64,000 nucleotides of DNA from an uncultured Candidatus Saccharibacteria bacterium (lineage in GTDB: Bacteria > Patescibacteriota > Minisyncoccia > Phycocordibacterales > SBAW01): assembly GCA_964566795.1 (NCBI GenBank), contig CAZMIU010000001.1:214789-278788 (forward strand), read 5' to 3'. The notes beneath the pieces are model-generated. The model made no database searches. It was not told where the DNA came from and saw only the letters and a list, made by a program, of their open reading frames with translations. Positions 451 to 52,320 of this stretch are shown piece by piece. How positions within the stretch are numbered: position 1 is the first letter of the stretch; every line of letters starts with the position of its first letter. Both the position numbers and the translations under genes were made by a program.

Positions 451-957
451 TTATATAAACCAGTTTAGGATGCTGGCAAAAAAGGTTTGTACTGCCAATA
501 CAATAGATGCGCCCAGTGTCAGCTCTTCTTTAACAGGAGTCGTTGACGCAGGCTCGGCTACCGCCACAGAGGTGGACGCACCAGGCTCTGTAGATACATC
601 AGCTGCAGGTATCACCCTCTGCTCGATCACTTTGCCGTTTGCCTCGTCCTTTATATCTACTGTTGTGGCCTTAGGGGTTGCCTGCACGCGCACCTCAACA
701 TTAGACGAGGTGGAGGTATAGGTCTCCTCGTGTACCTCGCCGTTGGCGTTTGTCTTTATATAGATGCTCGAGGTCGAGGAGCCCGAGACATTGCTGGTCG
801 AGACAGACGCAGAGGTTGCTCCGGTGCTAACAACCCCGCCCGGGCCCACCGTGTTGCCGCCGGTTTGGGACGAGGCGCTGGTGTGGCTCTGTATATCGGC
901 GCTGGCAAAAGCCGGCAGAGCCAGAGCAACAATGGTTGTAACAATGAGTGCGCGCAT
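451..957 (-). CDS. Ser/Thr-rich secreted protein with a C-terminal hydrophobic segment
   Basis: ORF 451..1029 trimmed to the internal Met (MRALIVTTIVALALPAFASA signal peptide). Composition is low-complexity S/T-rich. The C-terminus LGASIVLAVQTFFASILNWFI is hydrophobic. Confidence 0.5.
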   Translation of the reverse strand: MRALIVTTIVALALPAFASADIQSHTSASSQTGGNTVGPGGVVSTGATSASVSTSNVSGSSTSSIYIKTNANGEVHEETYTSTSSNVEVRVQATPKATTVDIKDEANGKVIEQRVIPAADVSTEPGASTSVAVAEPASTTPVKEELTLGASIVLAVQTFFASILNWFI

Positions 958-1003
958 ATCAGGGTAGTGTACTGCCCTGCCCCTGCCTGTATACAGCGGG
1001 GGT

Positions 1004-3790
1004 CTACAGAGCAGGCGTGCCGCAGGCAATAGTGCGGATCTTCTTTATCGTCATGCCTCCTACCGTGCCTGTGGGGTTTGCCAGGCCAATGGGTGTCAGG
1101 ATGTCGGCAGCGTAGGTCTTCTGGAAGGTGTTAACCGCTGCGCGGGTCATCGGGCCAAAGAAGCCGGTCGGAGGCAGCGTTGTGGCCTGGTGCGCGTTGA
1201 GGAAGTTCTGCAGCTTTACAACCTCGGGGTTGGTCATGCCGTAGCGCAGGGTCTGGCTCACAGCCAGGCTGCAGTCTATGGCCGCACCCAACACCGCGCC
1301 CGCACCGCCAAGCGACACGGTAGCCTCGCCCGATATAGGGTCAAACGGCTTGCCCTGTGTGCCCGAGCTAAAGCGCTTGCCGGTTATCGTGGCCTTGTTG
1401 CGGTAGGAGCCGGGCACGGTCGATGTGGCAAACTCGACAGAGTAGGTGAGCGTAATCTGCTCGCCGGCATCCATGGGGCCAATGTCCCACGAGCGCTCGT
1501 ACAAGACACTGCCAGTCGGGTCGTAGAGCACATCAGAGAGCTTGCCGTCGTACAGCGGGCCGGCCTTCTCAAGGTTGGTTATAACGACCTTGTAGTCGAC
1601 CAGTGCAGGCGTGGTTGTGCTTACGCGCACCACCTCCTTGACCACCGATATGTCGGGGTTTTTGCCGGAGGCAACCGCAACCGCCAGGTTGGACGAGGCC
1701 TTAATCTTGCCACTCTTGCCACCACCCCCGCCGCCACCGCCACCTCCGCCGCCGCCAGACGCAGGCGGAGCCTGCACCTCGACAGTTGCGATAGTAAACG
1801 ATGCTTCTGCGTTGCTGCCGTTGCCGTCGCTCAGCGCGGTAACCGCCACAGGGACAGTCACGCCGGTGCCCGCCGGTATATCGCCCACGGTTGCCGGATA
1901 GGTAAATGTCTCAGACTCGCCGCGGTGTACGGTGGGCAGGCGCCACTCCCGGCCCGTATCGGTGCTGTCGCCCTCTGTGTCGGCAAAGGCGAGTTTGCTC
2001 TTGTCGTAGTCGGCCTTAAGCACAATGTCGTCTGCATCGCGGTCGCCGTTGTTGGTGATAGTAAACTCGTACGCGATAGTACTGCCCGGCGCTACTGCCG
2101 CCGGAGCAACCGTCTTGGCCGAGAGCGCAAGCGCCGACTTGCCAAACGAGATGTCGCCGTTCCAGTTGCCCAGCACGTTAAACAGGGCAAAGATCCAGTT
2201 GCGGCCCACAATGTTGGTGTTGATGATGTTGACCAGATTGGCAATAGCGTAGGCGTCACCCGAGATAATATGCGACGTACCATCCTCGGTCACGGTCAGG
2301 TTGCGGCCCGTGTTGGCACCCACATCTATGTCGTTCTCGACAACTGCGCTATTGGTAGAGGAGGCCACCATGGTCGAGGAGTTGTAGCAGTTGTTGATAG
2401 GACCCTCGTCCTCGTCACAGTTGGCCACAGCAGCGCTCTCCGGGTGTTGCAGGCCCTCCGGGTCGCCCTCGGTCGCATCCTCCAAAGAGTCCTCGTTGGT
2501 TACAAGTACCAAGGTTGAGGTAGAGGTGACGCCTGCCGGAGTAGTGGACACATCGTACATCTTAAGGAAGTTCAGCCCCTCAGGAAGTGACTTGGCCGTG
2601 CCCATCCACTCGCCCGCGACACGGAACATAAAGAAGGCCGACGTGCCGCCGACATAATTCTTGTTCATATCGGTAAACTCGGTCGACTGGCTGTATGCGT
2701 CGCCTGTCATCACGACACCGCTGCCCTCGCCCGTTGTCGAGGCCATGTTCTCGCCCGTATTGGCGTTGGTAAGCACGTCGCCGGTGGTGGTGCCGTAGTT
2801 CTCATTATTTATGAGTGCATAGCTGGAGTTCATCTCCGGGGCCGAGCCGCCGCGTGCAAAAAGGTCTACAAAGAAGCTGCCTCCCGGGAGCGTAATGTCG
2901 CCATCCAGGTCGCCAAAGTTGTTGAAGGCGACCATCAGGTAGCTCGAGTTGATGATGTTGGTGTTAACTAGGTTGACCACGTTGGCACCGGCATACGCGT
3001 CGCCGGATGTAATCTCCGCATCGCCATCGCCCGAGGTGGTTGCGGTGTTGCCGCCCGCATCGGCGCGCACAATAACCGTGTTGGTTACAGTAGCGGTATT
3101 GCCGCTCTCTACCAAAAGGTTGGATGAGTTAAGGCAGGTAAGCAAGGTGCACTGCTCTTCGCCCGTCTCCGGGTTTACTGTCGGAGATGAGCCCGCCTCC
3201 CCGTCAAAAAAGTAGGAGAGGTTGTAGTCGCGCAAGTCAAGCCCGGTACTAAACATCTGGTTGAGGAAGATAATGAGGCCGGTGGAGTTAAAGATGTTGG
3301 TGTTAATAAGGTTGATGACATTGGCAAATGCAAAGGCGCCGCCGGTTACTACCGTTGCCGTGCCCTGCCCGCCCTGGGCAACGTTGTCGCCTGTAGATGC
3401 GGTTGAGGTCGAGAAGTTGGCTACCAGCGCCTCGTTAGATGAGGTGGCGTGGATCTCAGAGGAATTGGTGCACTGCTTGTCGGAGTCCGGGGAGAGCGGG
3501 TCGCAGGCGGCGTCCGGGTCTACGTTGTTGGTGTTAAGCGTGTCCTCTACCGAGGTAGACGCGTACGCGTTGCCTGTGTTGATGGTGCCGCCCACATCGT
3601 GCTGGCCGCCGGTGCCATCGGAGGATGTCGCAATAACCTGGCCGGAATTGGCGCCATTCTCGCCGTCTGGTGTCACCACATCCTCATTGTCTGCACGCAC
3701 CGGCGCCACAAAGGCAAACAAAACTACAAAAAGTAAAGAGAGGGCGAAGGAGATAAAGAATGCCTTGCGGGATGTGTGTGTATGTGTCAT
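1004..3790 (-). CDS. 928-aa secreted repeat protein with four copies of a (S/T)GDAYAxANxVNxxNTNI-type repeat, a DUF11-like segment, a poly-Gly linker and a C-terminal putative peptidoglycan-binding domain
   Basis: N-terminal signal peptide (…FVAPVRA/DNE). Repeats: TGGAFAFANVINLINTNIF, SGDAYAGANVVNLVNTNIINSS, SGDAYAIANLVNIINTNIVG. TITNNGDRDADDIVLKADYD resembles the DUF11 conserved repeat. A G13 tract is present. The C-terminal LQNFLNAHQATTLPPTGFFGPMTRAAVNTFQKTYAADILTPIG looks like a PG_binding_1 module. Confidence 0.8.
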   Translation of the reverse strand: MTHTHTSRKAFFISFALSLLFVVLFAFVAPVRADNEDVVTPDGENGANSGQVIATSSDGTGGQHDVGGTINTGNAYASTSVEDTLNTNNVDPDAACDPLSPDSDKQCTNSSEIHATSSNEALVANFSTSTASTGDNVAQGGQGTATVVTGGAFAFANVINLINTNIFNSTGLIIFLNQMFSTGLDLRDYNLSYFFDGEAGSSPTVNPETGEEQCTLLTCLNSSNLLVESGNTATVTNTVIVRADAGGNTATTSGDGDAEITSGDAYAGANVVNLVNTNIINSSYLMVAFNNFGDLDGDITLPGGSFFVDLFARGGSAPEMNSSYALINNENYGTTTGDVLTNANTGENMASTTGEGSGVVMTGDAYSQSTEFTDMNKNYVGGTSAFFMFRVAGEWMGTAKSLPEGLNFLKMYDVSTTPAGVTSTSTLVLVTNEDSLEDATEGDPEGLQHPESAAVANCDEDEGPINNCYNSSTMVASSTNSAVVENDIDVGANTGRNLTVTEDGTSHIISGDAYAIANLVNIINTNIVGRNWIFALFNVLGNWNGDISFGKSALALSAKTVAPAAVAPGSTIAYEFTITNNGDRDADDIVLKADYDKSKLAFADTEGDSTDTGREWRLPTVHRGESETFTYPATVGDIPAGTGVTVPVAVTALSDGNGSNAEASFTIATVEVQAPPASGGGGGGGGGGGGGKSGKIKASSNLAVAVASGKNPDISVVKEVVRVSTTTPALVDYKVVITNLEKAGPLYDGKLSDVLYDPTGSVLYERSWDIGPMDAGEQITLTYSVEFATSTVPGSYRNKATITGKRFSSGTQGKPFDPISGEATVSLGGAGAVLGAAIDCSLAVSQTLRYGMTNPEVVKLQNFLNAHQATTLPPTGFFGPMTRAAVNTFQKTYAADILTPIGLANPTGTVGGMTIKKIRTIACGTPAL
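1719..1757. repeat. Near-homopolymeric (GGN)13 / (CCN)13 triplet tract that encodes Gly13 inside the 928-aa gene
   Basis: ccaccacccccgccgccaccgccacctccgccgccgcc. On the coding (-) strand it translates to GGGGGGGGGGGGG. Confidence 0.7.
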
Positions 3791-3886
3791 GTCGTTGTGA
3801 GTTAATGCCCTCTCTGAAGTCTCGTATGTCTAGCACATACAAGGCCTCATGAGAAGGGGGAACGTGAGTTCCCCAATCTCTTTAAA

Positions 3887-4579
3887 CTAGATGCGAACGC
3901 GGAGGAAGTTGGTGTTGAGAACGTTGACTGCACCCGAGTTCGTAGTCGAGTTGCCAGTGCGTACCTCGCCGCCTACGCCACCTGCGCCACCATGGCCGCC
4001 TGCACCGCCGGTACCAGAGGTTGCATCGCCGTTGTTGGAGCCAGCAGCCTTGGTTGCAGAACCAGAGTTGCCACCCTCCTCGCCATCGCCGCCAGTCGAG
4101 CCGACTGCTGCGTTAAGGCCAGTAGATGCAAGAGCAGTGGTAGTCTCGTTGATGTTACCAGCGTTAGCCTGTGCTGCGACTGCCGACGAGCTGTTGAGGC
4201 CGCCGTTTACGCGAACACGGGTGTTGTTGCTGTTAGCAGTGTTGATTGCACCAGCGTCTGCCGAGGCAGAGCCGGTTACAACCAAGCCGCCTGCACCGCC
4301 GTTGCCGCCGTTGCCGCCGGAACCTGCGTTGCCTGAGGTTGCATTACCCTGGCTGCCGCTGTTTACAGAGGAGCCCGAGTTGCCACCCTCATCGCCATCG
4401 CCGCCAGTCGAGCCACCTGCCAAGTTGAGGCCGGTGTTCGAGATGGCAGAGGTGTTGCTCGTTACGTTACCCGAGTTCGAGTTGCTGATAACGAGGGAGC
4501 TGCTGTTGACTGCTGCGAGGGCCGGAGTCGCGGTTGCGAGCATGCCGAGCGCAGTGAGTGCTGCAAGAGTTTTCTTCAT
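3887..4579 (-). CDS. Gly/Ser/Asn-rich secreted low-complexity protein with an internal duplication and a C-terminal NVLNTNF motif
   Basis: Signal peptide MKKTLAALTALGMLATATPALA. Two ~75-aa internal repeats (TGLNLAGGSTGGDGDEGGNSGS… and TGLNAAVGSTGGDGEEGGNSGS…). The C-terminal GAVNVLNTNFLRV matches the NxVNxxNTNI repeat of the 928-aa protein. Confidence 0.65.
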   Translation of the reverse strand: MKKTLAALTALGMLATATPALAAVNSSSLVISNSNSGNVTSNTSAISNTGLNLAGGSTGGDGDEGGNSGSSVNSGSQGNATSGNAGSGGNGGNGGAGGLVVTGSASADAGAINTANSNNTRVRVNGGLNSSSAVAAQANAGNINETTTALASTGLNAAVGSTGGDGEEGGNSGSATKAAGSNNGDATSGTGGAGGHGGAGGVGGEVRTGNSTTNSGAVNVLNTNFLRVRI

Positions 4580-5200: not shown

Positions 5201-6226
5201 TCAATCTTGAGCGGGCTCCCCTTCTTGTGGTGTAGCTTGCTCCTGAGGCGCCTCAGGCTCTTGCAGAGCCTCGGTCTTAGGCTCTTGCAAAGACTCCGGC
5301 TGCGGCTCCTCAACCTGCAGCGGTTCTAGCTCTACAACAGGGGGCTCCTCTTGTATAGCCGGCGGCGTTGTTGACGCCTGCTCGCCCAACACCTCGCCGC
5401 TTTGCCCATGAGTCTTAGTCGTAGTTGCTGTTGTCGTTGCCGTGTCGTCTAAAGCCGGCTGCGCAAAACTTTCTATACTAAACGGGTTTACAAACGGGAC
5501 CACGGGCATGGGCGCCCATGTTGTTGCGGCAAGCAGGTTGCCCGAGGTGTACTCTTGGTCGGCAAACAGTGCCAACGTGTGCCCCGCGTACGTAAGGCCA
5601 AACACCACTGCCAGCATGAGCGACACTGCCGCTCCTATGCTGCCGCCGTGTTTTTGTGTCCGCCGCTGCACCGTACCCACAACAAACATGTCGTCCATAG
5701 TGCGCACGCGCGCGTAGCGCACAACACGCTGTGGCTTGGGCTGCCGCGCACCCCTAAGCGCCTGCCACAGCGCCACAGACTCATCGACAATAACCATAAG
5801 CGCCGGCAAACCAATAAGGAGCGCAAAGCCCAGGGGTTGGCGCGCAAAGTGGAGTACAAACCCGGCGTAAGGCACGGTTAGCCACACCTTGCCTACAACT
5901 TTCTGCGCCGCCGCCACCTGGCTGTCCGGCTCCTCGTTGGCGTCGCCTTTGGTGGTGTACCCCGCCTCTCCCTGCGCCACAATGCGGTGCGTGGTGGGTA
6001 CGCGCTTACCGTCGTTAAATGTAATGACATCGCCCACCTGGTAGTGCGCGGCGGGCTTTATAAACACCAGGGCCCCCACAGGTATGGCAGGCTCCATAGA
6101 GCCCGACTGCACAATTTTTGACTCGATACCCCCCGGTATAGGCAGCATGCTCGACATAAACACTGCGCCCACAGCAAGCAGCGCCAGGGTTATAAACAAC
6201 TGGAGTATCTGGGTAAGCCGTTTCAT
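5201..6226 (-). CDS. sipW: Archaeal/eukaryotic-type (S26B, SipW-like) signal peptidase I with a ~160-aa C-terminal extension
   Basis: The SGSMEP catalytic-Ser motif, VGDVITF, THRIV, TKGDANEEPD and VPYAGFVLH are SipW hallmarks. An N-terminal TM is present. The extension carries extra TM segments and an acidic Pro/Glu-rich tail (EPLQVEEPQPESLQEPKTEALQEPEAPQEQ). Confidence 0.8.
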   Translation of the reverse strand: MKRLTQILQLFITLALLAVGAVFMSSMLPIPGGIESKIVQSGSMEPAIPVGALVFIKPAAHYQVGDVITFNDGKRVPTTHRIVAQGEAGYTTKGDANEEPDSQVAAAQKVVGKVWLTVPYAGFVLHFARQPLGFALLIGLPALMVIVDESVALWQALRGARQPKPQRVVRYARVRTMDDMFVVGTVQRRTQKHGGSIGAAVSLMLAVVFGLTYAGHTLALFADQEYTSGNLLAATTWAPMPVVPFVNPFSIESFAQPALDDTATTTATTTKTHGQSGEVLGEQASTTPPAIQEEPPVVELEPLQVEEPQPESLQEPKTEALQEPEAPQEQATPQEGEPAQD

Positions 6227-6229
6227 ATA

Positions 6230-7168
6230 TTAGCGGTTGCGGGTTGGGACACTGCGGTCGGTGCGAACCTGCGGGCCAGCCTGCACCGGCGGCGGGAAGC
6301 CGTTGGGGCACTCGGTAGTGTAGCGGGGCAGCGGCCAGCCAAAGGTGGCAACTGTTTTGCACTTAACAAACAGGCCTATTTGCTCGCCGAGCCCCGGGGT
6401 TTTGGGCGTGGTGGTTGCCGGCTCGCCGCCCAAGCTGCACAAAAATGTGGGCTGCTCAGAGGCCACCGCCGCCTGGAGCCCCACATTGACAGAAAATGAG
6501 TCGCTCTGGGCCACGTTGCCGAGTGCCGAGCCGTCGCAACTTATCTGTGCGGTGGGCACGTTTACCGAGAGGTTGCCGGCACACCAGGCAATGCCTACAT
6601 ACTTGGTAACACCCGCGGGTATGGGCACGCCAGAGCCCGCATCGGCAAGCGCGTAGGTTGTAGATGCGAGCACTGTGGCAGCACTTTGCACTCCGGTGCC
6701 AAACAGCGGCTGCTCCCCCACCTCAAACACGTTGTCGCCGTCGTCACGCCAGGAAAAGAACTCCATGCCCTCTGCAAGCTCTCCTTTGTCTGCCGGGATG
6801 CTGGCATCGACCGGGTCCTCGGGCTCGTTCTCGCCGTTTTCCAAGCTGATGAGGTTGCTAAACTGCAGGCACATCCATGCGGGTTTGTTTACATGGAGGC
6901 TAATGGTGCTGTTGCCTTGGTCGCCCGGCATGATGTTTGAGAAGTTAAAGAACTTGTCTACACCGGGCACCAGGTTTTTTAGGTCCCACGTGGCCGCGGG
7001 TACAGGTAAGCCGTTGTAGCTGGCTTTGCTGTCGAGCTCTAGGCTAAAGCCGTTTGGCGCGGCAAAGGTTATGCCGGGTGCGGCCTGCGCGAGCAGGGCG
7101 AGGGAGCCCACTAGCACCAGCGTGGTGCCAATGAGTCCTACGTGCTTGAGCGTGCGTGCCAAGTGCAT
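6230..7168 (-). CDS. TasA/camelysin-like paralog without the AFFSD motif (TapA-like accessory candidate)
   Basis: It shares the post-signal region with its neighbours (KFFNFSNIMPGDQGNSTISLHV…AWMC versus KFFDFADLKPGDWGEDTIGLFV…YLCA). Its signal region is AQAAPGITFAAPNGFSLELD. Confidence 0.6.
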   Translation of the reverse strand: MHLARTLKHVGLIGTTLVLVGSLALLAQAAPGITFAAPNGFSLELDSKASYNGLPVPAATWDLKNLVPGVDKFFNFSNIMPGDQGNSTISLHVNKPAWMCLQFSNLISLENGENEPEDPVDASIPADKGELAEGMEFFSWRDDGDNVFEVGEQPLFGTGVQSAATVLASTTYALADAGSGVPIPAGVTKYVGIAWCAGNLSVNVPTAQISCDGSALGNVAQSDSFSVNVGLQAAVASEQPTFLCSLGGEPATTTPKTPGLGEQIGLFVKCKTVATFGWPLPRYTTECPNGFPPPVQAGPQVRTDRSVPTRNR

Positions 7169-7174
7169 TGTGGG

Positions 7175-8527
7175 TTAGGGTGTCGGGATGCCGCAGTGGA
7201 GAGCCTCTATGGCGTCTAAGTCGTATGCGTCTGCATCGTTGGGAAACAAGGCTACGTTGCTTGCGTCGGTAATGCGCACGTATTGCGCCCATGCCAAACC
7301 AGATGAGCTTATGTCTATCTCTGCGTCGCGGGTGTACACACCTGCAACCGGTTGGTATGTGACGCCGTTTTGGCTGACCTCAACGGTTATCTTTTCGTCC
7401 GGATATACGCCGCCGGTGACCTCGTACACTTTCAGATCGGCTCCAACCTCATCAAGCACGACGTTGTCGCCAAAGTTAAGCACTACGCTGCCGTGTGGAG
7501 GCCCGCCCGGCTTAAACCCAAGGCTCAGGAACGAGCTTGCAGGAAACCCTACGTCAGACGCAGCACCACTTGTCTGAGGAGCGCCAGTGGCAGCGGCAAT
7601 AACCGAGCGGTTTGCGAGCACTGCTGCCCCACTCTTTTGCGTACCCTGGCTTAGATCATTGCCGGAATCAGCATACTTTTGATTGCCCGTGCACTCGCCA
7701 AAGGTTGGGGTATCGTCCTCGACACAGACAAAGCTGTCGTTGTTGCGGGACTGCACCGCGCTAAACGCAATGTCTGCGGTAAGCGAGTCGGTTTGGGTGG
7801 TGTTGTTAAGCCCCGAGCCGTCGCATGATATGCCGCCGGAGGAGTTGGCGGGTGACTGCGGGCTGTTGATACCAAGCCCATCCTGCGCAAGCGGAGCGAG
7901 CGTAAGCGTGCCAAAGCACCACGCCTTGCCAATGTAGTGCGCCCATCCTCCCTGTACGGGGCCCGGAGCCTGACCTGGGTTCCAGATGTTGAGCGTGCTG
8001 TCGGCAAGCGTAACTGTGGTAGTGACCCCAAGCGTGAGCGCACCTATGGGGCCCTGCGATATGGGCGCCTCGTCGCTCTCCAACACGTTGTCGCCGTCGT
8101 CTGCCCACCAGACAAAGTTGACCTCGCCCGCAAGCTCGCCCTGCCCTGCGCCGTCGGTTGCGTCGCCGTCCAGACTCTCGGGCTCGTTTATGCCGTTGTC
8201 GTCGTTGCTGGTGAGCGATATGTCGGCACACAGGTAGGAGTCGTTTGTCTCGACAAAGAGCCCAATGGTGTCCTCGCCCCAGTCGCCGGGCTTGAGGTCG
8301 GCAAAGTCAAAAAACTTTTGCATCACCAGGTCGGCAAAGTCCCACGATGTTGCGGGCGAGGGGGCGCCGTTGTAGTAGCTTTCGTTGGCTACGGTTAGGT
8401 TTATCTCGCCTGCGGCAAAGATGTTGGCGACCGATGTCTCGCTGTCGCTAAAAAATGCGCTTGTACCCGCAACCAGCACGGTGCCCGCGAGCAGAACGGA
8501 ACCAAGGCTGAGCAGTATGCTTTTCAT
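7175..8527 (-). CDS. TasA/CalY (camelysin, peptidase M73 family)-like secreted protein with a SipW-cognate signal peptide
   Basis: N-terminus …AGTVLVAGTSAFFSDSETSVANIFAAGEINLTV matches the SipW-cognate class signal consensus (compare CalY GGGTFAFFSDKEVSNNTFAAGTLDL). Paralogous to 8616..10139. Confidence 0.8.
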   Translation of the reverse strand: MKSILLSLGSVLLAGTVLVAGTSAFFSDSETSVANIFAAGEINLTVANESYYNGAPSPATSWDFADLVMQKFFDFADLKPGDWGEDTIGLFVETNDSYLCADISLTSNDDNGINEPESLDGDATDGAGQGELAGEVNFVWWADDGDNVLESDEAPISQGPIGALTLGVTTTVTLADSTLNIWNPGQAPGPVQGGWAHYIGKAWCFGTLTLAPLAQDGLGINSPQSPANSSGGISCDGSGLNNTTQTDSLTADIAFSAVQSRNNDSFVCVEDDTPTFGECTGNQKYADSGNDLSQGTQKSGAAVLANRSVIAAATGAPQTSGAASDVGFPASSFLSLGFKPGGPPHGSVVLNFGDNVVLDEVGADLKVYEVTGGVYPDEKITVEVSQNGVTYQPVAGVYTRDAEIDISSSGLAWAQYVRITDASNVALFPNDADAYDLDAIEALHCGIPTP

Positions 8528-8615
8528 CGCTTGTAAAAATGAGCTTATAAGGCGCCGGGTTCCCCTCCAGCCCGCCCAGCACGAGTTGCCTCATGCTGGG
8601 TACGGCTTGATAGGA

Positions 8616-10139
8616 TTAGAGCTCGAAGTTGTACGTTGTTCCGTCAAACTCGATTGAGCTCACATAGTTTGTCGCACCTGCTGGGCCCGGCTGTCCGGTG
8701 CGGACACCCAGGAATGAACCCGGCGAGAGGAGCTTTGCTGTGGGGAACGCCGCTACGATAGAGTTCCATGAGCGGTACTGGTTTGTATCAGCATCCGGCC
8801 AACTGTTGTCGTCTGCTGTTGCAGCAGTGAGGTCAGGACCAACGGCAAACTTTGACCAAGTCCACATCGCGGTTCCTTGGGCATCAACTGTGGTCCATGT
8901 TGCCGGAGGGAGTGCGGAATTGCCGCCCGAGCCCGGTTGCATGGTCAGACGACCCTCATACGCCGGTCCCGGTAACGGGAAGTCAACGTTGAACTGGATA
9001 AACGGCGTATCGCCATCTGCAGTCGCGTCATATACACGGAACTTGAGCGAGCTGATGGTGTTGAGCAGGTTGCTAAACTGCGCAGTCGCAATGTTGTAGC
9101 GGGGATTCGGATTCGTATCCAGCTTCATCTTTGCGCCCGCCTCGCTGGCGACCACTTCCATGTGGTTCTCACCGCCCTGTCCTGAGAACTGGTCAGGGGT
9201 CATGACGGTATCGTTGGTGTCGTTGTAGAAGAACCATGGGTTCGGTCCTACACCGAGGTCATTCTGATTGACCACCACAACATTATTCCCTGCCGAGCAG
9301 GTGAAGTTCGGATTGTTGCGGGACTGCTCTGCGCGGAAGCTGATGTTTGCGGTCATGGAGTCGGTCTGCGCCTGGTTGCCCATTGATCCGCCGTCACAGG
9401 TAAGTGTGCCGGGTATAGAGGTATCTATGTCGCCTGCGCACCACGCAAGGCCAACATACGTTGTTTGGTCTCCCTCAAACGGACCATTGCCCGTCGTCGA
9501 ATCGGCTAACGCGAGAGTGGTGGTTACACCAAGGATATTGGATGCGGGGCCGGAGTCAAACAACAACGGCTCACTTGCCTGCCAAATGTTGTCTCCGGCG
9601 ACCGCTCCGTTGGTGTTTGCAAGGTCTGCCCAGGCAACAAACTGGATGTTCTGAGCAAGTTCTCCGTCAAAGTCATTGTTGGAGTCCTCTGCAACATCAC
9701 CTGCGGCAAGTTCTGGCTCTACAGACGACTCGTCATCATTTGCGGTGATGTCTACGTCTGCGCACATCCACGCATCGTTGTTTATAACGTGGAGCGAGAT
9801 TGTGTTTTCGCCCTCATCACCCGGCTTGATATCGCTTAGGTTAAAGAACTGGTTTGTGGGCCCAAGGTCACCCTGCACCCAGGTACCATCACAGTCGCCA
9901 TTAAGCAGGTCAGGACGAGTTGTCACCTCTTGGACATTCGGATCATCTACCCAGTGGTTTGTTGCATCACACACGAGACCTGCATAGTGTGCCTGAGAAT
10001 CAACCTGCAAGTCTATAGACCCTGCAGTAAACGTGTTGGCAGACGAGGTCTCAACATCGCTAAAGAACGCGCCCGTTGCACTTGCAACTACTGCTCCAAT
10101 GAATACGAGCGTGCCCGCGCTCATAAGTATTCTTTTCAT
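8616..10139 (-). CDS. TasA/CalY-like secreted protein with a SipW-cognate signal peptide; first gene of the operon
   Basis: …VVASATGAFFSDVETSSANTFTAGSIDLQV. The following FNLSDIKPGDEGENTISLHV…AWMCADVD motifs are shared with the other two paralogs. Large C-terminal domain. Confidence 0.8.
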   Translation of the reverse strand: MKRILMSAGTLVFIGAVVASATGAFFSDVETSSANTFTAGSIDLQVDSQAHYAGLVCDATNHWVDDPNVQEVTTRPDLLNGDCDGTWVQGDLGPTNQFFNLSDIKPGDEGENTISLHVINNDAWMCADVDITANDDESSVEPELAAGDVAEDSNNDFDGELAQNIQFVAWADLANTNGAVAGDNIWQASEPLLFDSGPASNILGVTTTLALADSTTGNGPFEGDQTTYVGLAWCAGDIDTSIPGTLTCDGGSMGNQAQTDSMTANISFRAEQSRNNPNFTCSAGNNVVVVNQNDLGVGPNPWFFYNDTNDTVMTPDQFSGQGGENHMEVVASEAGAKMKLDTNPNPRYNIATAQFSNLLNTISSLKFRVYDATADGDTPFIQFNVDFPLPGPAYEGRLTMQPGSGGNSALPPATWTTVDAQGTAMWTWSKFAVGPDLTAATADDNSWPDADTNQYRSWNSIVAAFPTAKLLSPGSFLGVRTGQPGPAGATNYVSSIEFDGTTYNFEL

Positions 10140-10499: not shown

Positions 10500-10919
10500 C
10501 TAGCGCGAGCGCGTTATGCAGCCGCGGCTGTCACACTGGGGAGCCGGCGTAGGCTCTGGTGCAGGCGGGTTTACCTGGCCCTGCTGTCCCCCGATAATTA
10601 CCGTGTTGCTGTTGTCGCGGGGAGGGTTGATGTTTGTCACCGTCACCGTGCTGCTTTGGTCGCCGGTTATCACATTGGAGCCGGTATTGCCCCCTGTGTT
10701 GTTGGAAGCTGTGGCGTTGCTGGTAATGTTGCCATTGCCACCCGCGTGATGAGGAGGATTCTGCGGCACAGTTGGGAATATGTTTGGCAGCGTCGGGAGA
10801 GCCGGTGCCGGAGCAGGTGCGTCTGCATCGCGCGAGCGGTCAGAGCGGTTGTCTGCCGCCAGTGCGGGAGTTGCGAGTAAAAGAGAACCGACAAGCACCA
10901 ATGCAGCAGTTGTACGCAT
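10500..10919 (-). CDS. Small secreted Pro-rich protein
   Basis: Signal peptide MRTTAALVLVGSLLLATPALA. PAPAPALPTLP segment. GSNVITGDQSSTVTVTNIN weakly resembles the GDAY…NTNI repeat family. C-terminal Cys pair. Confidence 0.5.
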   Translation of the reverse strand: MRTTAALVLVGSLLLATPALAADNRSDRSRDADAPAPAPALPTLPNIFPTVPQNPPHHAGGNGNITSNATASNNTGGNTGSNVITGDQSSTVTVTNINPPRDNSNTVIIGGQQGQVNPPAPEPTPAPQCDSRGCITRSR

Positions 10920-11008: not shown

Positions 11009-11272
11009 TTATAGTCTACACCCGCTCTGAAGGTGCAATGAGCCCGAGCGGCGATAATTGATGATAAGACGGCACAAATAGCTTGTGGTCAAGAACACCG
11101 AGAGGGATGTGAGCGCCAAAAAGAGTCCTGCTATCCACATGTTGCCCGATGCGGCAAGCAGGTATCCCGCGTAAAGACCCAGTGGCGTCACTGAGCCAAG
11201 CCCTGTTGAGTTGAATGACAGCATGTCAGTTGGTCCGAGTGCCCCAGCGGCCAGAGTATCCGAGTTTAGCAA
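11009..11272 (-). pseudogene. Out-of-frame TM-rich ORF overlapping the GT2 3' end; possible frameshifted C-terminal membrane anchor of the GT2 gene
   Basis: The ORF encodes TGLGSVTPLGLYAGYLLAASGNMWIAGLFLALTSLSVFLTTSYL (two TM helices). It sits directly 3' of the GT2 ORF in another frame, overlapping by ~45 nt. Confidence 0.3.
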
Positions 11273-12443
11273 ACAGTATGGTGCCCCACGCTGCGATGCG
11301 CGCCAGGACTCCGCCCTGCCGCATTAGTGTGCGCGACAAGACAGAAAATCCGATGAACGCGTACGAGCCCAGGAGCACTAGTGTCATGATACTGCTAAAA
11401 ATTAACTCGGGCACAAGACTTATCCTCAGGGCCCAGTCCCACCTGTCTTTTTCCGGGTACCAGCGCATGAGCCACAACTGGAGCACATACCACGACACAA
11501 ACTGCAGTATGGAGAGCGTAATAAGGACCCTAAGCACCACAGACGGCACGCCCCCGCCGTCTACAATGAGGAGCGTTATAAGGAGCGCCAGCGTGGCGAT
11601 AAACACCACGTGGCCCAAGACATCCTGGAGCACGGCTGTCTTGTCGCGGGCGCCAAGCACCACCTGCACCCCGCCCAGGCTCCACCTGGTACGCTGCCGC
11701 CAAAACTGCCCCAGAGTCTCGGGGACCTCTGTCCAGGCGGGTGCATCCAGCGCCGCGCGCACGCTCCAGCCCAGGGACTTTAGCCGGGTGGTCATCTCGT
11801 AGTCCTCAATAAGGTGGCTCTCGGCAAAGGGGCCTGCCTGCCTAAGCGCCCGGGCGCGCAGCGCCGTAAGCATCCCGTGCATTACCAGAGGCCCGCGCAA
11901 AAAGCCCTGGTCGCCCAGGCGTATGGCATTAAAGCCCACATACTCCAGGCCCTGCAGGCGCGTAAGCAGGTTTTTGTTCTTATTGAGCACGCCGCAGCGC
12001 GAGCACACCGCCCCCAGCGTAGGGTCGCTAAAGAGCGCCTCTGTCATGCGCTTTACGGTCGTGGGCCCCACCACCACGTCGTCATCAAGCGTAATGATGG
12101 CGGCGGGCTTGTAGGGGCCTTTGCGCTCAAACAGGTACGCAAGCGCCAGGTTAAGCGCCCCGGCCTTGAGCCTGTTGTGCGGCGTGCGCAACACCACAAC
12201 GCGCGGGCCCATAGCCTTAAGGCGCGCCAGCACCTCCATAGCGGGCGCGTAATCCTCTGGCGTGGAGTCGTCTACCACCAGCACCTCAAGCTTGGGGTTG
12301 TACCGTACAAGGTCCTCTACCAAACAAAGCGCCGTCGCCCCCGGTTTGTAGGTAGGGACGACGGCGCTTACGTTGGGCTCAAAAACCTTGTGCGTACTAA
12401 GAGAGCGTGTTGGGACTAGAAAGTTTTTGAGCGATACCCTCAT
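11226..12443 (-). CDS. Family 2 glycosyltransferase (membrane-associated processive GT2-like)
   Basis: VVPTYKP, VVDDSTPED, TLDDD (the DxD), and QRTRWSLGG (the QxxRW motif). Hydrophobic C-terminal helices. Confidence 0.8.
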   Translation of the reverse strand: MRVSLKNFLVPTRSLSTHKVFEPNVSAVVPTYKPGATALCLVEDLVRYNPKLEVLVVDDSTPEDYAPAMEVLARLKAMGPRVVVLRTPHNRLKAGALNLALAYLFERKGPYKPAAIITLDDDVVVGPTTVKRMTEALFSDPTLGAVCSRCGVLNKNKNLLTRLQGLEYVGFNAIRLGDQGFLRGPLVMHGMLTALRARALRQAGPFAESHLIEDYEMTTRLKSLGWSVRAALDAPAWTEVPETLGQFWRQRTRWSLGGVQVVLGARDKTAVLQDVLGHVVFIATLALLITLLIVDGGGVPSVVLRVLITLSILQFVSWYVLQLWLMRWYPEKDRWDWALRISLVPELIFSSIMTLVLLGSYAFIGFSVLSRTLMRQGGVLARIAAWGTILFAKLGYSGRWGTRTN

Positions 12444-13915
12444 TACCGGCCAAAGAGCCAGTTGATAAAGCGGGTAAGCCAGCCCTCGCCTGCCCCGGTC
12501 GAGGTGGCGTTAGCCGCAGTAGCCGTCTGTACCTTGGGGTCTATAACGCTACTATTCTCGTCTACCTTAACGTTGGGAGCGACCACGCTGCCCACAGCGG
12601 GCGCTGCTCCTGCCGCAGCAGGTGCCACTGCGCCAGCGCCTGTGGTGCCCATGCTCGTTATACCCTGCGCGCGCAGCTGGGGCTGCACCTGGCGCACATA
12701 GGCTATCTCCTCAATCTGGCTTGCCGAGAGCGGGAAGTCTTTCTGGAACTTGCAGTAGATAGTGTTTATCGTCTTTTGCGTTGTGTAGTACACGTAGCCG
12801 GTAGCGCCCCTGGCCCCCCACGGGGTGAGGATGTCTGCGGCGTACTTGTTCTGGAAGGCGTTAACCGCAGCAAGCGTTGCCGGGCCGTAGGTGCCTGTAA
12901 CCGGCAGGGTGTTGCCCTCAAAGGTGTTAAGGAACACCTGGAGCTTGGCCACCTCGCCTGCGTCGTTCTGCGCGCCATACTTGATATAGCCGGTGAGGTA
13001 CATGGGGCACTCATCCTGAGCACCCAACACCTCGCCCTGGCTGCCGCTGGAGCGCGAGCCGCCACTGCGGCGGTGCGAGCTGCCGCCCGATGAGTCGCCA
13101 TCGTCGTCATTGCTGCCGCCACCGCCGCCCTGACCCTCGTCGGTCTCATTGTCGTCCTGTGCGTCTGAGCAGCCCAGGTCTGCCGGGAAGTCGACTAGCC
13201 CGTCGCCGTCGTTGTCCTGGCTGTCGGAGCACTGCGCAGAGCCACCGCCGCCTGTAGAGTCGGTTTCGTCGGTGTCGTTGGCATCGGTGCAGCCCGGATC
13301 TGCCGGGAAGTCTGTCTTACCGTCGCCATCATTGTCCTGGCCGTCTGAGCAGGCAGGGTTGTTGCCGCCGCCCTGGTCAGTCTCGTCGGTGTCAGAGGGG
13401 CTCGAGCACCCCGGATCTGCCATGTCGACTTTGCCGTCGCCGTCGTTGTCCTGGCCGTCTGCACACTGTGCCGGCAGGGTAGGATCGTCGCCTTCGTTGT
13501 CATCGGTCGGCGTAGAACAGCCTGGGTCTGCGTCGGCATCACCCGGTACACCCCAATCTACTTTGCCGTCATTATCGTTATCGATGCCATCGTTGCACTG
13601 TGGAGGTACGGTGCAGGGCAGGTCGGACTGGCTTTGATTGCCCGGCAAATCCGGACACCAGTCTATTACCTGGCCGCCATCATCCTCGCAGTCCTCCTCA
13701 AACATCGGAAAGATCCCCGTGGTGCCATCACCCTCATCTCCCACCTGGTCAACCAAGCAGAGGATCTCTGTGGCAAGTGTTGCGTGCACGAGACGCTGGT
13801 TTCCCCAAACAAACGCGGTGAGCGCAAGCGCCACCGCCATCATGAAGGCGATAGACGTGCGCAATTCCCGAGTCAACGTCATAAGTAATATGATTACGCT
13901 ATTAAATAAAAGCAC
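12443..13915 (-). CDS. Secreted protein with 4-5 Cys-flanked Asp-rich calcium-binding repeats (CxDGQDNDGDGKxD…DPGC), a Gly/Ser linker and a C-terminal peptidoglycan-binding-like domain
   Basis: Repeats CADGQDNDGDGKVDMADPGC, CSDGQDNDGDGKTDFPADPGC, CSDSQDNDGDGLVDFPADLGC. C-terminal LQVFLNTFEGNTLPVTGTYGPATLAAVNAFQNKYAADILTPWG is paralogous to the C-terminus of the 928-aa protein. Confidence 0.75.
   Translation of the reverse strand: MLLFNSVIILLMTLTRELRTSIAFMMAVALALTAFVWGNQRLVHATLATEILCLVDQVGDEGDGTTGIFPMFEEDCEDDGGQVIDWCPDLPGNQSQSDLPCTVPPQCNDGIDNDNDGKVDWGVPGDADADPGCSTPTDDNEGDDPTLPAQCADGQDNDGDGKVDMADPGCSSPSDTDETDQGGGNNPACSDGQDNDGDGKTDFPADPGCTDANDTDETDSTGGGGSAQCSDSQDNDGDGLVDFPADLGCSDAQDDNETDEGQGGGGGSNDDDGDSSGGSSHRRSGGSRSSGSQGEVLGAQDECPMYLTGYIKYGAQNDAGEVAKLQVFLNTFEGNTLPVTGTYGPATLAAVNAFQNKYAADILTPWGARGATGYVYYTTQKTINTIYCKFQKDFPLSASQIEEIAYVRQVQPQLRAQGITSMGTTGAGAVAPAAAGAAPAVGSVVAPNVKVDENSSVIDPKVQTATAANATSTGAGEGWLTRFINWLFGR
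13150..13560. repeat. Tandem ~96-bp coding repeats (four copies) that encode the DNDGDGK calcium-binding modules
   Basis: Recurrent DNA blocks …ctgccgggaagtc..ccgtcgccgtcgttgtcctggc.gtc.gagca… are visible directly. Confidence 0.6.
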
Positions 13916-42847: not shown

Positions 42848-44611
42848 CTAGCGACAGGCGGTATTAACATAACTTACAGCGTTTGGGGGGACTCCTCCTG
42901 CTTTTATCACGTTGCCTGCACCCTGGAAGTAAGCTGCCGCAGTTATCTGGCACTCGCCGTACTGTTGGCGCAGCGAGGCAAGTGCAGGCAGAGTGCGCAT
43001 TTGCTCTATATATTGCACACCGAGCCTGGTCCCCAACTGCGTGTCGTTTTCGAGAGTCTGTATAACCGGCGCACACTGCGGCCTGATGCTGTTGCGGCTC
43101 GCCAAGCAAGCACCGCAACTGTCTGATATCGAGGAATCCATGCCACATGCGGTTGTAGCCAGCACCTGCATGCAGCCCGCGGCGCCTGTGTTGCTTGTTG
43201 TGCAGTTGCGACCTCCGCTCGACTCATTCATTGCAATTTTTGTCGCTAAAGCACAGTTGCCCCCATTTATCTGGACACAGGCCGCCTGTAGTTCTGCCGC
43301 CATGTTTGGATTGCTAATCCTGCCCTGAGTACGAGCCTCTACCCAGTCGTCGGGATTGTTGGGGTTCTCGCAGTAACCCCCTTCTTCGCTCGTATACGTG
43401 TACCCCGACGGGCATACTGACCCTCCGGATGAGCCCCCGGCACCGTAACTTGTGCCAGAGCCTACTGTGCTGTTGCCAACCGATACACTCACGCCGCAAT
43501 TAGAGTAGGTACATTCGCCAGTCGTGTTGTCGGTACAACCGCCAATTGCCGAGCTGTATGACGATCCGTTGGGACACATTTGGCCTGTTACCGGCACCCC
43601 GGCGCCGGGGTTTACACCGCAGTTTGAGAACGTACATTCATTTGTCGTGCTGTCTACACATCCGCCTAAAGACGACTGGAATATTGACCCGCTCGGACAT
43701 AACGGATTGTTGTATACAGGGTCGCTTGGTGGAGCCACGTTGGTATACCCCGAGAGGGTCGGGAGCGAGGTGTTGAGATAGTCCTTAATGCTCATGTTGT
43801 ACAGGCGCGCACCGCGTACTGCCCTGCAGTCGAGCGTGCGCCAGTCCCACGTGCCAAGCTGGCCCCCCTTCATGAGCATGTTCATGACCGTGTTTACCAG
43901 AGCCCACACGCTCACAATTATCAAAAACCCAATCAGCACAGTCTTAAATATCTTTTTGGCCGCATTGATATGCTCTGCCACGCCACGCGCGGCAAACAGC
44001 CTGATGCCCGCCCAGGCAAACAGGAGTGCCGCAGCCGGGACGCTGAGCCCCAACAAAAAGTTGGCGATGTTTTGTATAAGCTGTGCCAGCGAGCACAGGT
44101 CGCAGTTGGCTACCGTATTTTTGCCGCGGCACTCGGCGGGCACAATGCCGCCCACAAACCCGTTACCGGTTGGGGCTGTAAGCCCTCCGGTTGGCGCAGC
44201 AGGCACTACAACATTGGGCTGTGGGGCCGGCGTTGTGGGCACGCCGGTGCCGGTGCCGGTGGTCCCAGTGCCTGTAGCCCCGCCACCCCCCGAGCCACCG
44301 CCGGCACTTACAACAACTGCCGTGCGGCACACAACAGAGCCCCCGGGGCCCGTAAAGCTCGCGGCGTAGGTGGTGTTTTTACCCGGCACCACGTAGGCAA
44401 ACCCGGCCGATGGGATAGGCCCCACCTCGTTGAGGTAGCCGGCAGATGCGTTCTTACTTGTCCAGTCGAGACGCACACGGGTGTTGGGCGCCACGGTTGC
44501 GGCGCTTGCAAACAAGGTGCAGGTTGGCGCGGGCGCTGTCTGGCTTTGCGCTGATGCAAAAGTAGGCGCAACAAGCGCCAAAACAAGCAGGAGCCTCGCG
44601 AAGGCCTTCAT
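42848..44611 (-). CDS. 587-aa multidomain secreted protein: Ig-like N-terminal domain, Gly/Thr linker, VirB2/TrbC-pilin-like two-helix membrane hairpin, three Cys-rich repeats, C-terminal SLT-type lytic transglycosylase domain
   Basis: Signal peptide. FAWAGIRLFAARG…IGFLIIVSVWALVNTV is paralogous to the 55.3-57.2 kb small proteins. Repeats CPSGSIFQSSLGGCVDSTTNECTFSNCGV and CPNGSSYSSAIGGCTDNTTGECTYSNCGV. The SLT core IAMNESSGG…GAAGCMQV…AAAYFQGAGNV can be compared with Slt70 ARQESAWN…GASGLMQI…AAYNAGPG. Confidence 0.7.
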   Translation of the reverse strand: MKAFARLLLVLALVAPTFASAQSQTAPAPTCTLFASAATVAPNTRVRLDWTSKNASAGYLNEVGPIPSAGFAYVVPGKNTTYAASFTGPGGSVVCRTAVVVSAGGGSGGGGATGTGTTGTGTGVPTTPAPQPNVVVPAAPTGGLTAPTGNGFVGGIVPAECRGKNTVANCDLCSLAQLIQNIANFLLGLSVPAAALLFAWAGIRLFAARGVAEHINAAKKIFKTVLIGFLIIVSVWALVNTVMNMLMKGGQLGTWDWRTLDCRAVRGARLYNMSIKDYLNTSLPTLSGYTNVAPPSDPVYNNPLCPSGSIFQSSLGGCVDSTTNECTFSNCGVNPGAGVPVTGQMCPNGSSYSSAIGGCTDNTTGECTYSNCGVSVSVGNSTVGSGTSYGAGGSSGGSVCPSGYTYTSEEGGYCENPNNPDDWVEARTQGRISNPNMAAELQAACVQINGGNCALATKIAMNESSGGRNCTTSNTGAAGCMQVLATTACGMDSSISDSCGACLASRNSIRPQCAPVIQTLENDTQLGTRLGVQYIEQMRTLPALASLRQQYGECQITAAAYFQGAGNVIKAGGVPPNAVSYVNTACR

Positions 44612-51876: not shown

Positions 51877-51883
51877 CTTTTTG

Positions 51884-51956
51884 TGCGCCTACCTGGGCTC
51901 GAACCAGGGACCATCTCCTTAAGAGGGAGTTGCTCTACCAACTGAGCTATAGGCGC
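51884..51956 (-). tRNA. tRNA-Lys (anticodon CTT)
   Basis: Reverse complement reads gcgcctatagctcagttggtagagcaactccctCTTaaggagatggtccctggttcgagcccaggtaggcgca. Confidence 0.8.
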
Positions 51957-52011
51957 ATGAGCGAACAGAACAGTAATACCATACCCCAAAAAACTCTTTC
52001 CTTCAATCTTG

Positions 52012-52094
52012 TGCCGAGGGTGGGAGTCGAACCCACACGACCTTGCGGTCAGGGGAGTTTAAGTCCCCGCTGTCTACCATTCCATCACCTCGGC
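52012..52094 (-). tRNA. tRNA-Leu (anticodon TAA), type II
   Basis: Reverse complement reads gccgaggtgatggaatggtagacagcggggacTTAAActcccc…ggttcgactcccaccctcggca. Confidence 0.8.
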
Positions 52095-52134
52095 GTTTCC
52101 TATTTGTATCACAAATGGTAGATTGATGAAGTCT

Positions 52135-52206
52135 GGCCACGTAGCCAAGTAGAAAGGCGCGGGACTGCAAATCCTGTATGCGCGGGTGCGATTCCCGCCG
52201 TGGCCT
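52135..52206 (+). tRNA. tRNA-Cys (anticodon GCA), with an atypical T-loop
   Basis: ggccacg/cgtggcc acceptor, loop ctGCAaa. The T-arm reads gcggg-tgcgatt-cccgc, which puts G where the conserved U55 is expected. Confidence 0.7.
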
Positions 52207-52221
52207 CAAGGTACTAGGTAT

Positions 52222-52303
52222 GCTGGGGTGGCGAAATTGGTAGACGCACCTGCCTTAGGAGCAGGCCCCGCAAGGGATGGAGGTTCAAGTCCTCTCCCCA
52301 GCA
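52222..52303 (+). tRNA. tRNA-Leu (anticodon TAG), type II
   Basis: gctgggg/ccccagc acceptor, loop ctTAGga, variable arm ccccgcaagggatgg, T-arm gaggttcaagtcctc. Confidence 0.8.
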
Positions 52304-52320
52304 CAACGGTCAATAGGTAA

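Follow-up and report, generated by a model that had tools for sequence, protein, structure and literature searches.

A Patescibacteria-restricted family of secreted repeat proteins with a candidate solenoid-like head on a presumed wall anchor

The 64,000-nucleotide stretch of contig CAZMIU010000001.1 analysed here (assembly GCA_964566795.1, positions 214,789 to 278,788 of the forward strand; hereafter the window), from an uncultured Candidatus Saccharibacteria bacterium, encodes a 928-amino-acid (aa) secreted protein whose head carries five copies of an undescribed repeat unit of ~75 aa. The unit recurs in small secreted proteins encoded beside it, and among the loci retrieved the repeat family is restricted to the ultra-small Patescibacteria (candidate phyla radiation, CPR). 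Newly defined are this widespread, lineage-restricted family, a conserved co-encoded gene set, a confident head model that is structurally unmatched, and an assembly hypothesis. The hypothesis, which we offer tentatively as a plausible reading, is that of a Patescibacteria-specific secreted family built from one beta unit, in which a wall-anchored protein would bear a solenoid-like head and paralogues of two rungs and one rung would dock on it.

The repeat was confirmed as real and far beyond chance at the coordinates listed in Table 1. A regular-expression scan of the 928-aa protein found [ST]G.[AS].[AST] motifs at aa 72, 149, 262, 362 and 510. With composition-adjusted scoring, BLASTP within the window aligned unit 3 (aa 229-303) to unit 5 at 45% identity (E 4e-18), to unit 2 at 44% (E 2e-12) and to unit 4 at 30% (E 2e-8). 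A hidden Markov model (HMM) built solely from the unit-3 column block of 91 homologues, and a repeat of the search with a profile designated A4, recovered the copies with the independent E-values (i-E) of Table 1. The first-pass annotation of this DNA had described four copies of a ~20-residue motif. It overlooked VMTGDAYSQSTEFTDMNKNYV at aa 360-380, in unit 4, and BLASTP and the HMM extend the motif to the full unit; the hydrophobic (F/L)(F/L)N stretch that it placed after the copies is borne out for units 2-5.

The pattern of the unit is NSS..V...N.A.V.N.V.V.A.TG.N.A-[tip]-I.TG(D/N)AYA.ANVVN.VNTNI..S-hydrophobic strand-G..GDI, and the consensus of 91 full-length homologues reads N.A...N.....A.TG.N.A...G.A.I.TGDAYA.ANVVN.VNTNI..SNYLL...NNFGD..GDI.LP. 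In these homologues the invariant or near-invariant columns of the head hold almost only Asn, Gly, Ala, Thr and Trp. Because the conserved residues are almost all Asn, Gly, Ala and Thr, the role of the head is probably structural rather than catalytic; an enzymatic role was rejected for lack of any invariant Asp, Glu, His, Ser or Cys column in the head. Asn, Thr, Gly, Ser and Ala abound in the head, where Lys and Arg are very scarce. The DNA of the unit cores shows just 62-73% identity, so the duplications are old. Between the units lie linkers of 28-78 residues, some of them helical, each with a Cys pair followed by 'NSS'. A conserved Cys pair then NSS (C..C.NSS) precedes units 2, 3 and 5 (aa ~96-111, 214-223 and 455-471; window ~3455-3505, ~3140-3160 and ~2390-2430), and unit 4 and both units of the neighbouring 230-aa protein likewise begin NSS. 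Judged from these Cys pairs, the linkers may be disulfide-closed. The conserved N-S-S also matches the pattern of a glycosylation sequon, and 15 of the 84 loci surveyed have a family-2 glycosyltransferase (GT2) gene in the vicinity.

No known family or fold accounts for the repeat. Searches of aa 1-550 against Pfam-A 2025, NCBIfam 20.0 and PHROGs v4 gave no match at E<=0.1, no Pfam family was matched by more than two of 103 single unit sequences, sequence profile searches of the Protein Data Bank (PDB) with the repeat head gave no match, and literature searches found no published description of the repeat. The exact sequences of three window proteins were absent from a collection of 15 billion proteins. 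The AlphaFold model of the full 928-aa protein had a pLDDT (per-residue confidence) of 80.5, and with it Foldseek found only tandem Ig-like proteins, matching the stalk; the head was therefore modelled separately. From a 98-sequence alignment, the head (aa 50-556) was predicted to be entirely beta with a pLDDT of 81.6 and a pTM (global fold confidence) of 0.78, each unit showing a strand of 21-23 residues, two short strands, and strands of 11, 3 and 10 residues. Foldseek with this model found no match in the PDB (best E 4.3) or BFVD (best E 0.1, template-modelling score (TM) <0.15), and no solved S-layer or archaeal sheath protein resembling it. The paper describing the archaeal sheath reports no bacterial homologues and was judged to have no bearing on the repeat. 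Collectively, the repeat is undescribed, and the head is confidently predicted yet structurally unmatched. The first-pass annotation had recognised no named repeat and had proposed family searches, structure prediction and metagenome searches as checks; its view holds across Pfam, NCBIfam, PHROG, PDB sequences and Foldseek, and structure prediction returned a confident all-beta head.

Profile A4, which spans 75 positions, matched 3,142 clusters (50% identity) at E<=1e-3 and 1,050 at E<=1e-30 among 1.84 billion representatives. The best 150 of the 3,142 were nearly all proteins of 630-1,180 aa (two were shorter, at 524 and 536 aa), nearly all with five stretches. A one-genome-per-species scan, with loci retrieved by a narrower unit-3 alignment (A5), gave 188 relatives, and the loci of 80 of these were listed; all 80 belong to Patescibacteria metagenome-assembled genomes. 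Their hosts comprise Paceibacterota, the Parcubacteria group, Kaiser-, Zambryski-, Taylor-, Nomura-, Adler-, Giovannoni- and Wildermuthbacteria and Minisyncoccia, and many further hosts carry the generic title 'uncultured Candidatus Saccharibacteria'.

The same unit is found in proteins encoded on either side of the large gene. With the HMMER unit profile, none of the 230-aa, 192-aa and 139-aa proteins of the window gave a significant match, and family-level profile-profile comparison was needed to detect the unit in them. The 230-aa protein is one of a Patescibacteria family of similar length, ~230 aa (99 matches), whose alignment (A2) contains two internal repeats, and hhalign of this family against each of four unit alignments gave 89-95% probability (E 5e-8 to 2e-6); its orthologues in three other loci (L001-L003) match the unit HMM directly (E 1e-14 to 9e-11). 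A signal peptide is followed by two units, at aa 33-125 (nucleotides (nt) 4205-4483) and aa 137-229 (nt 3893-4171), where a single terminal copy had been noted before. A Gly-rich insert of ~38 aa interrupts each unit at its hairpin tip, between 'TG.N.A.GS' and 'GG.V.TG.A.A', and the protein has no third strand, ending ...NTNFLRVRI. The open reading frame (ORF) of 192 aa holds one unit (nt 772-903); when its family of 14 members was compared with the unit by hhalign, the probability was 92.6% (E 4.6e-7). After the signal peptide, members of that family have one unit at the N-terminus of the mature protein, a linker rich in Ser and Thr, and a conserved C-terminal aromatic-hydrophobic motif, and in other genomes they lie upstream or downstream of the large gene. 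For the 139-aa protein encoded from position 10500, in which a weak copy had been proposed, the presence of a unit is doubtful and the evidence only suggestive (hhalign 57%, E 1e-4); the 192-aa ORF offers the better single copy. Orthologues of the 139-aa protein occur in five other loci.

Genes of the large and the two-unit proteins travel together. We compared all ORFs of 83 related loci and the window (84 in total) with the unit HMM, the HMM of the 230-aa family and the other window proteins. A 230-aa-family ORF lay upstream on the same strand for 74 of the 83 large genes, within 1.5 kb for 66, at a median gap of 468 bp; of the nine large genes without one, six are preceded by fewer than 800 bp of sequence. 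The large gene and the two-unit gene thus nearly always occur as a pair, and many loci also have a small one-unit gene between the two or a gene of the 192-aa type downstream. On two contigs, one comprising loci L007 and L012 and the other L010 and L020, two or three complete modules (230-aa gene plus large gene) lie within ~20 kb.

By sequence, the 928-aa protein has the layout of a wall-anchored fibrillar surface protein: a signal peptide, the five-unit beta head, two stalk domains of the CLIPPER (DUF11) family and a PG_binding_1 domain. The match to DUF11 (Pfam PF01345; 46.6 bits against a cut-off of 24.6, E 4.9e-12) falls in two stretches confined to aa 558-827, where all-beta segments are predicted at pLDDT >90, and that to PG_binding_1 (PF01471; 30.1 bits against a cut-off of 23, E 5.6e-7) covers aa 854-893. 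DUF11 is now named CLIPPER, a CnaA-like fold, often with an isopeptide bond, that typifies the stalks of fibrillar adhesins (PMC12617251). The signal peptide, Ig-like stalk and surface anchor that define fibrillar-adhesin architecture are all found here, with just two stalk domains. Thirteen consecutive glycines, encoded by DNA rich in GGC and GGT (window 1673-1750), link the two CLIPPER domains, and a poly-Pro ORF on the strand complementary to the Gly run (1611-1901) is surely spurious.

Covariation within and between units suggests how the head might fold. Mean-field direct-coupling analysis (DCA) was applied to 1,147 distinct unit sequences (effective number, Meff, 934). The strongest systematic coupling within the unit joined arm A (profile positions 5-17) to arm C (34-46), with an inner segment pairing 18-22 with 29-34. 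Only the odd positions of arm A coupled, each to two even positions of arm C (i+j = 51 and 53, not 52), and odd positions of arm C coupled to arm D (55-65) at i+j = 100 and 102. Because of this separation by parity, and because each residue sits between two opposite residues, the arms would pack face to face as separate sheets rather than as hydrogen-bonded neighbours. Neither face of arm C is charged; of the two faces of arm A, that of Asn, Ala and Val is conserved and the other, rich in Thr, is variable. The hairpin tip corresponds to positions 24-28, the site of the Gly-rich insert in the 230-aa family. We dropped the idea of arm D as a plain continuation of arm C; a 16-residue N-terminal extension of the unit model gave no covariation with arm D. 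Between units, couplings fell on the in-register diagonal, with a mean z of 2.0 for units 2 and 3, 1.1 for units 3 and 4 and 2.1 for units 4 and 5, against 0.0-0.5 at offsets of 1-3, with a small rise at +/-2. The linkers of 28-78 residues are of the kind that a parallel stack requires as return connections. Taken together, the covariation pattern suggests a solenoid of wide three-layer rungs stacked in register. The first-pass annotation had raised the possibility of a beta-solenoid or fibre-forming unit, and the parity-separated, in-register couplings are compatible with that idea.

In our favoured model, each unit would be a flat three-layer serpentine in which a long arm A leads through a small protruding arch to arm C, running back, and then to arm D, which is short and hydrophobic; the arch tip would be the part that carries the Gly-rich insert in the 230-aa protein. 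The units would be parallel, in-register rungs of a beta-solenoid that has Asn ladders, a dry core of Ala, Val and Asn and one exposed Thr-rich face, so that the head would be a five-rung stack whose hydrogen-bonding edges are open. Since proteins of one or two rungs cannot stack alone and have no wall anchor, the 230-aa and 192-aa proteins most likely dock on the head. Hydrogen bonds between strands would hold them at the open ends of the anchored stack, which they would extend or cap. A hydrophobic motif at the C-terminus, which might tether the protein to the membrane or to some other protein, occurs in the one-unit protein alone. The resulting surface structure could serve attachment to a host cell or protect the envelope as a sheath.

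Several observations weigh against this model. Coupling between the non-neighbouring units 3 and 5 (z 2.2) is as strong as that between neighbours, compared with the weak coupling of units 3 and 4; this signal, which a simple sequential stack does not predict, would mean that rungs are stacked out of sequence order or that the signal is partly non-contact. In-register coupling could also come from concerted evolution of the repeats, and parallel stacking is inferred from mean-field DCA with a Meff of ~220 per unit pair. No solved solenoid matched the head model in Foldseek, where the best long alignments were to LpxD and CsgA (E >4, TM 0.05). Finally, the probable docking of the small paralogues is argued from the shared unit and synteny only, and by HMMER alone the window's own 230-aa protein does not match the unit HMM significantly (E 0.46).

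A less probable, though realistic, alternative is that the head is a stand-alone adhesin, an antiparallel beta-meander or sandwich that binds a ligand on a host cell in episymbiosis, with the 230-aa and 192-aa proteins as independent paralogues. CLIPPER-stalk fibrillar adhesins share with the 928-aa protein the order of signal peptide, distal head, Ig-like CLIPPER stalk and envelope anchor (PMC12617251); the 928-aa protein differs in its two-domain stalk and its undescribed repeat head, and adhesion is conjectural for it. The band of covariation at constant i+j is also what a hairpin would give. Furthermore, cultured Paceibacteria highly express secreted proteins of unknown function with PG-binding domains, for which host attachment has been proposed (Kuroda et al. 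2024, PMC10936435), and these would favour an adhesin if they belong to the repeat family. Unlike fast-evolving adhesin tips, however, the head is strongly conserved, at 65-80% identity among many relatives, and the parity-separated couplings with their half-residue offset fit face-to-face layers better. A protein of just one unit is difficult to account for as a fold of its own, and the near-obligate gene pairing suggests a joint function.

An extension of the stacking model, possible but rather doubtful, is that the Paceibacteria/Parcubacteria group has a cross-beta extracellular system of its own, in which a peptidoglycan-anchored five-rung solenoid would template the stacking of its secreted two-rung (Gly-rich) and one-rung paralogues into a fibre or sheath on the cell surface. 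Such a system would be unrelated in sequence to curli, chaplins and TasA, and its fold of unusually wide three-layer rungs would have no PDB counterpart. Likenesses to curli (major subunit CsgA, surface-bound nucleator CsgB) are that both are secreted, have about five imperfect strand-turn-strand repeats with Asn/Gln ladders (predicted for the repeat unit) and use turn motifs of Gly, Asn and Ala (GxGNxA in curli, TGxNxA in the repeat unit), and that paralogues sharing the repeat are encoded side by side, one of them held at the surface where it could template the others. In contrast to curli, whose unit is ~22 aa in two layers, the unit here is ~75 aa with an inferred three layers, none of the 103 unit sequences matched Curlin_rpt, and Foldseek related the head to CsgA (8c50_A) at E 5.2 and TM 0.04-0.05; the host is a member of the Patescibacteria, the anchor binds peptidoglycan, and fibre or amyloid formation is only conjectural here. 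The chaplins of Streptomyces comprise long forms (ChpA-C) with two domains and a sortase-attached wall anchor and short forms (ChpD-H) with one domain, the domains being short and hydrophobic. By analogy, the logic of the repeat family may be the same, with wall-anchored members of several copies and small secreted one-copy members assembling on the surface, although the sequences are unrelated, and the repeat family has copy numbers of 5, 2 and 1 and a PG_binding_1 anchor.

We consider it unlikely that the large protein is of the S-layer type and assembles laterally through its head into an envelope lattice or sheath, with the Gly-rich 230-aa protein as matrix. The wall anchor and rigid beta head would suit such a role, as would the abundance of Asn, Thr, Gly, Ser and Ala and the scarcity of Lys and Arg in the head, and the two or three tandem modules of some genomes. 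The Foldseek searches, by contrast, found no similar S-layer or archaeal sheath protein among solved structures, and a short two-domain stalk with a flexible poly-Gly linker is atypical of S-layer anchoring.

It had further been proposed that the repeat unit co-assembles with the adjoining TasA-like proteins; the repeat proteins would then be part of SipW-dependent fibres, for instance as a TapA-like anchor or nucleator. This we regard as distinctly improbable. The TasA/TapA/SipW fibre system is encoded alongside the repeat proteins in the window, and both would be extracellular beta-rich proteins of monoderm-type cells; the large protein also has the wall anchor expected of an anchoring partner. 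Linkage exceeds chance by a rough estimate, which puts the expectation at about 2% for a genome of ~1 Mb: of the 84 loci, 8 have a SipW gene no more than 10 kb from the large gene and 10-11 have TasA-like genes at such a distance, often in the same orientation. In a reciprocal test we retrieved 80 metagenome loci with a SipW alignment and counted the 25 that have at least 12 kb of DNA. All 25 contain TasA-like genes, whereas the large repeat protein is present in 6 and a 230-aa-family gene in 8, so that most loci of either kind lack the other. The linkage of ~12% of loci is far from the constant pairing of true partners, and the constant partner of the large protein is the 230-aa family, not TasA. 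Moreover, in the closest relatives (loci L004 and L006) the 139-aa and 230-aa genes are direct neighbours and the intervening SipW/TasA block is missing, which makes the block (5201-10139) context outside the conserved module. The repeat proteins do not belong to the TasA family. The SipW-type signal peptide (TIGR04088) was found on the 450-aa and 507-aa neighbours and not on the 928-, 230-, 192- or 139-aa proteins; the camelysin (Peptidase_M73) match of the 928-aa protein (aa 533-603) is below threshold, at 17.1 against 22.5 bits, and the 230-aa protein has no match to this Pfam family. Between SipW and the 230-aa gene lie a strong terminator-like hairpin (5001-4976) and a promoter-like site (4936-4908) that would separate the two, a point that is only suggestive since counts of such sites are overall at chance level.

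That the motif is nothing but low-complexity composition rich in Asn, Thr and Gly is effectively refuted: although the region is compositionally biased and HMMER bias correction removes the window 230-aa match, the composition-adjusted pairwise BLASTP E-values, the HMM matches, the position-specific conservation in 91 homologues, the consistent covariation and the confident structure prediction speak for a true repeat.

Table 1. Features of the repeat-protein locus in window coordinates (nt); all lie on the minus strand.
Feature	Coordinates	Strand	Remarks
PG_binding_1 protein with Asp-rich repeats	12443-13915	-	first in transcription order
Family-2 glycosyltransferase	11226-12443	-	second in transcription order
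139-aa secreted Pro-rich protein, possible short unit at aa ~59-117 (nt ~10569-10745)	10500-10919	-	
Three TasA-like genes	8616-10139, 7175-8527, 6230-7168	-	
SipW-type signal peptidase	5201-6226	-	TIGR02228 at 2.6e-29
230-aa protein (medium paralogue)	3887-4579	-	
928-aa protein (large)	1004-3790	-	ORF; 135 homologues found
Signal peptide of 928-aa protein, aa 1-33 (...FVAPVRA/DNED)	3692-3790	-	read from sequence; helix predicted at aa 9-28
Unit 1, partial (aa ~52-91; TGNAYASTSVEDTLNTNNV)	3518-3637	-	HMM i-E 0.008, 5e-4 with A4; mainly second arm
Unit 2 (aa 118-187; TGGAFAFANVINLINTNIF)	3230-3439	-	HMM i-E 3.5e-15, 9.9e-22 with A4
Unit 3 (aa 230-302; SGDAYAGANVVNLVNTNII)	2885-3103	-	i-E 8.6e-27 with A4; reference for alignments A4 and A5
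Unit 4 (aa 329-399; TGDAYSQSTEFTDMNKNYV)	2594-2806	-	HMM i-E 4.8e-9, 1.3e-17 with A4
Unit 5 (aa 478-551; SGDAYAIANLVNIINTNIV)	2138-2359	-	HMM i-E 1.2e-21, 1.2e-26 with A4
Stalk: two CLIPPER (DUF11) Ig-like domains, aa 558-673 and 714-827, poly-Gly linker aa 681-706	1310-2119	-	
PG_binding_1 domain, aa 854-923	1022-1231	-	helical, pLDDT >90; presumed wall anchor
192-aa ORF (small paralogue)	451-1029	-	likeliest start ATG at nt 954, giving 451-954, 168 aa

The genes of interest thus form a minus-strand series in the ORF list of the window (Table 1). The remainder of the window holds housekeeping genes (topoisomerase I, RelA/SpoT, ClpB, IF-2 and GyrA) and eight tRNAs, which identifies it as chromosomal DNA. 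At the head of the series, the 490-aa secreted protein encoded at 12443-13915 has four Asp-rich repeats of the form QC.DG.DND.DG..D...D.GC, calcium-binding by appearance, followed by its PG_binding_1 domain, and relatives of it are encoded upstream of the repeat-protein module in many loci. The SipW-type peptidase has 341 aa; a typical SipW has ~190 aa. Its C-terminal half (window 5201-5700, minus strand) includes, past the second hydrophobic segment, an extension with a motif (LALFADQEYTSGNLLAA in the window, VSYFNDTE.S.GN in homologues of alignment A6) resembling the SipW-type cleavage region of TasA, so that the peptidase seems, from this likeness, to be fused to a possible substrate-like module; several homologues have another 200-400 residues. 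The 312-aa gene (6230-7168, minus strand) is a TasA-like paralogue of the 450-aa and 507-aa genes (E ~1e-32) whose product gives no match to the TIGR04088 SipW-type signal. It always adjoins SipW, and its orthologues are the best conserved in other SipW loci (E 2e-78 to 4e-103); for counterparts of the 450-aa and 507-aa genes there, E is 1e-41 to 8e-56, apart from one locus in which the best value is 1e-107. Elsewhere in the window, 42848-44611 (minus strand) encodes a 587-aa protein with a type IV secretion pilin domain (PF18895, E 2.4e-9) and a weak SLT transglycosylase match, and a cluster of four tRNAs on alternating strands (Lys-CTT, Leu-TAA, Cys-GCA and Leu-TAG) lies at 51883-52304.

Patescibacteria make up a large share of bacterial diversity, and the cultivated ones live attached to other cells. 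To our knowledge, their surface structures apart from type IV pili are essentially unknown. If the stacking model is true, the repeat proteins would represent a functional cross-beta surface polymer of a new class, with a beta-solenoid geometry that is likewise new. Should the head instead be that of a plain adhesin, it would still be a candidate determinant of host attachment, and the repeat deserves a curated family entry.

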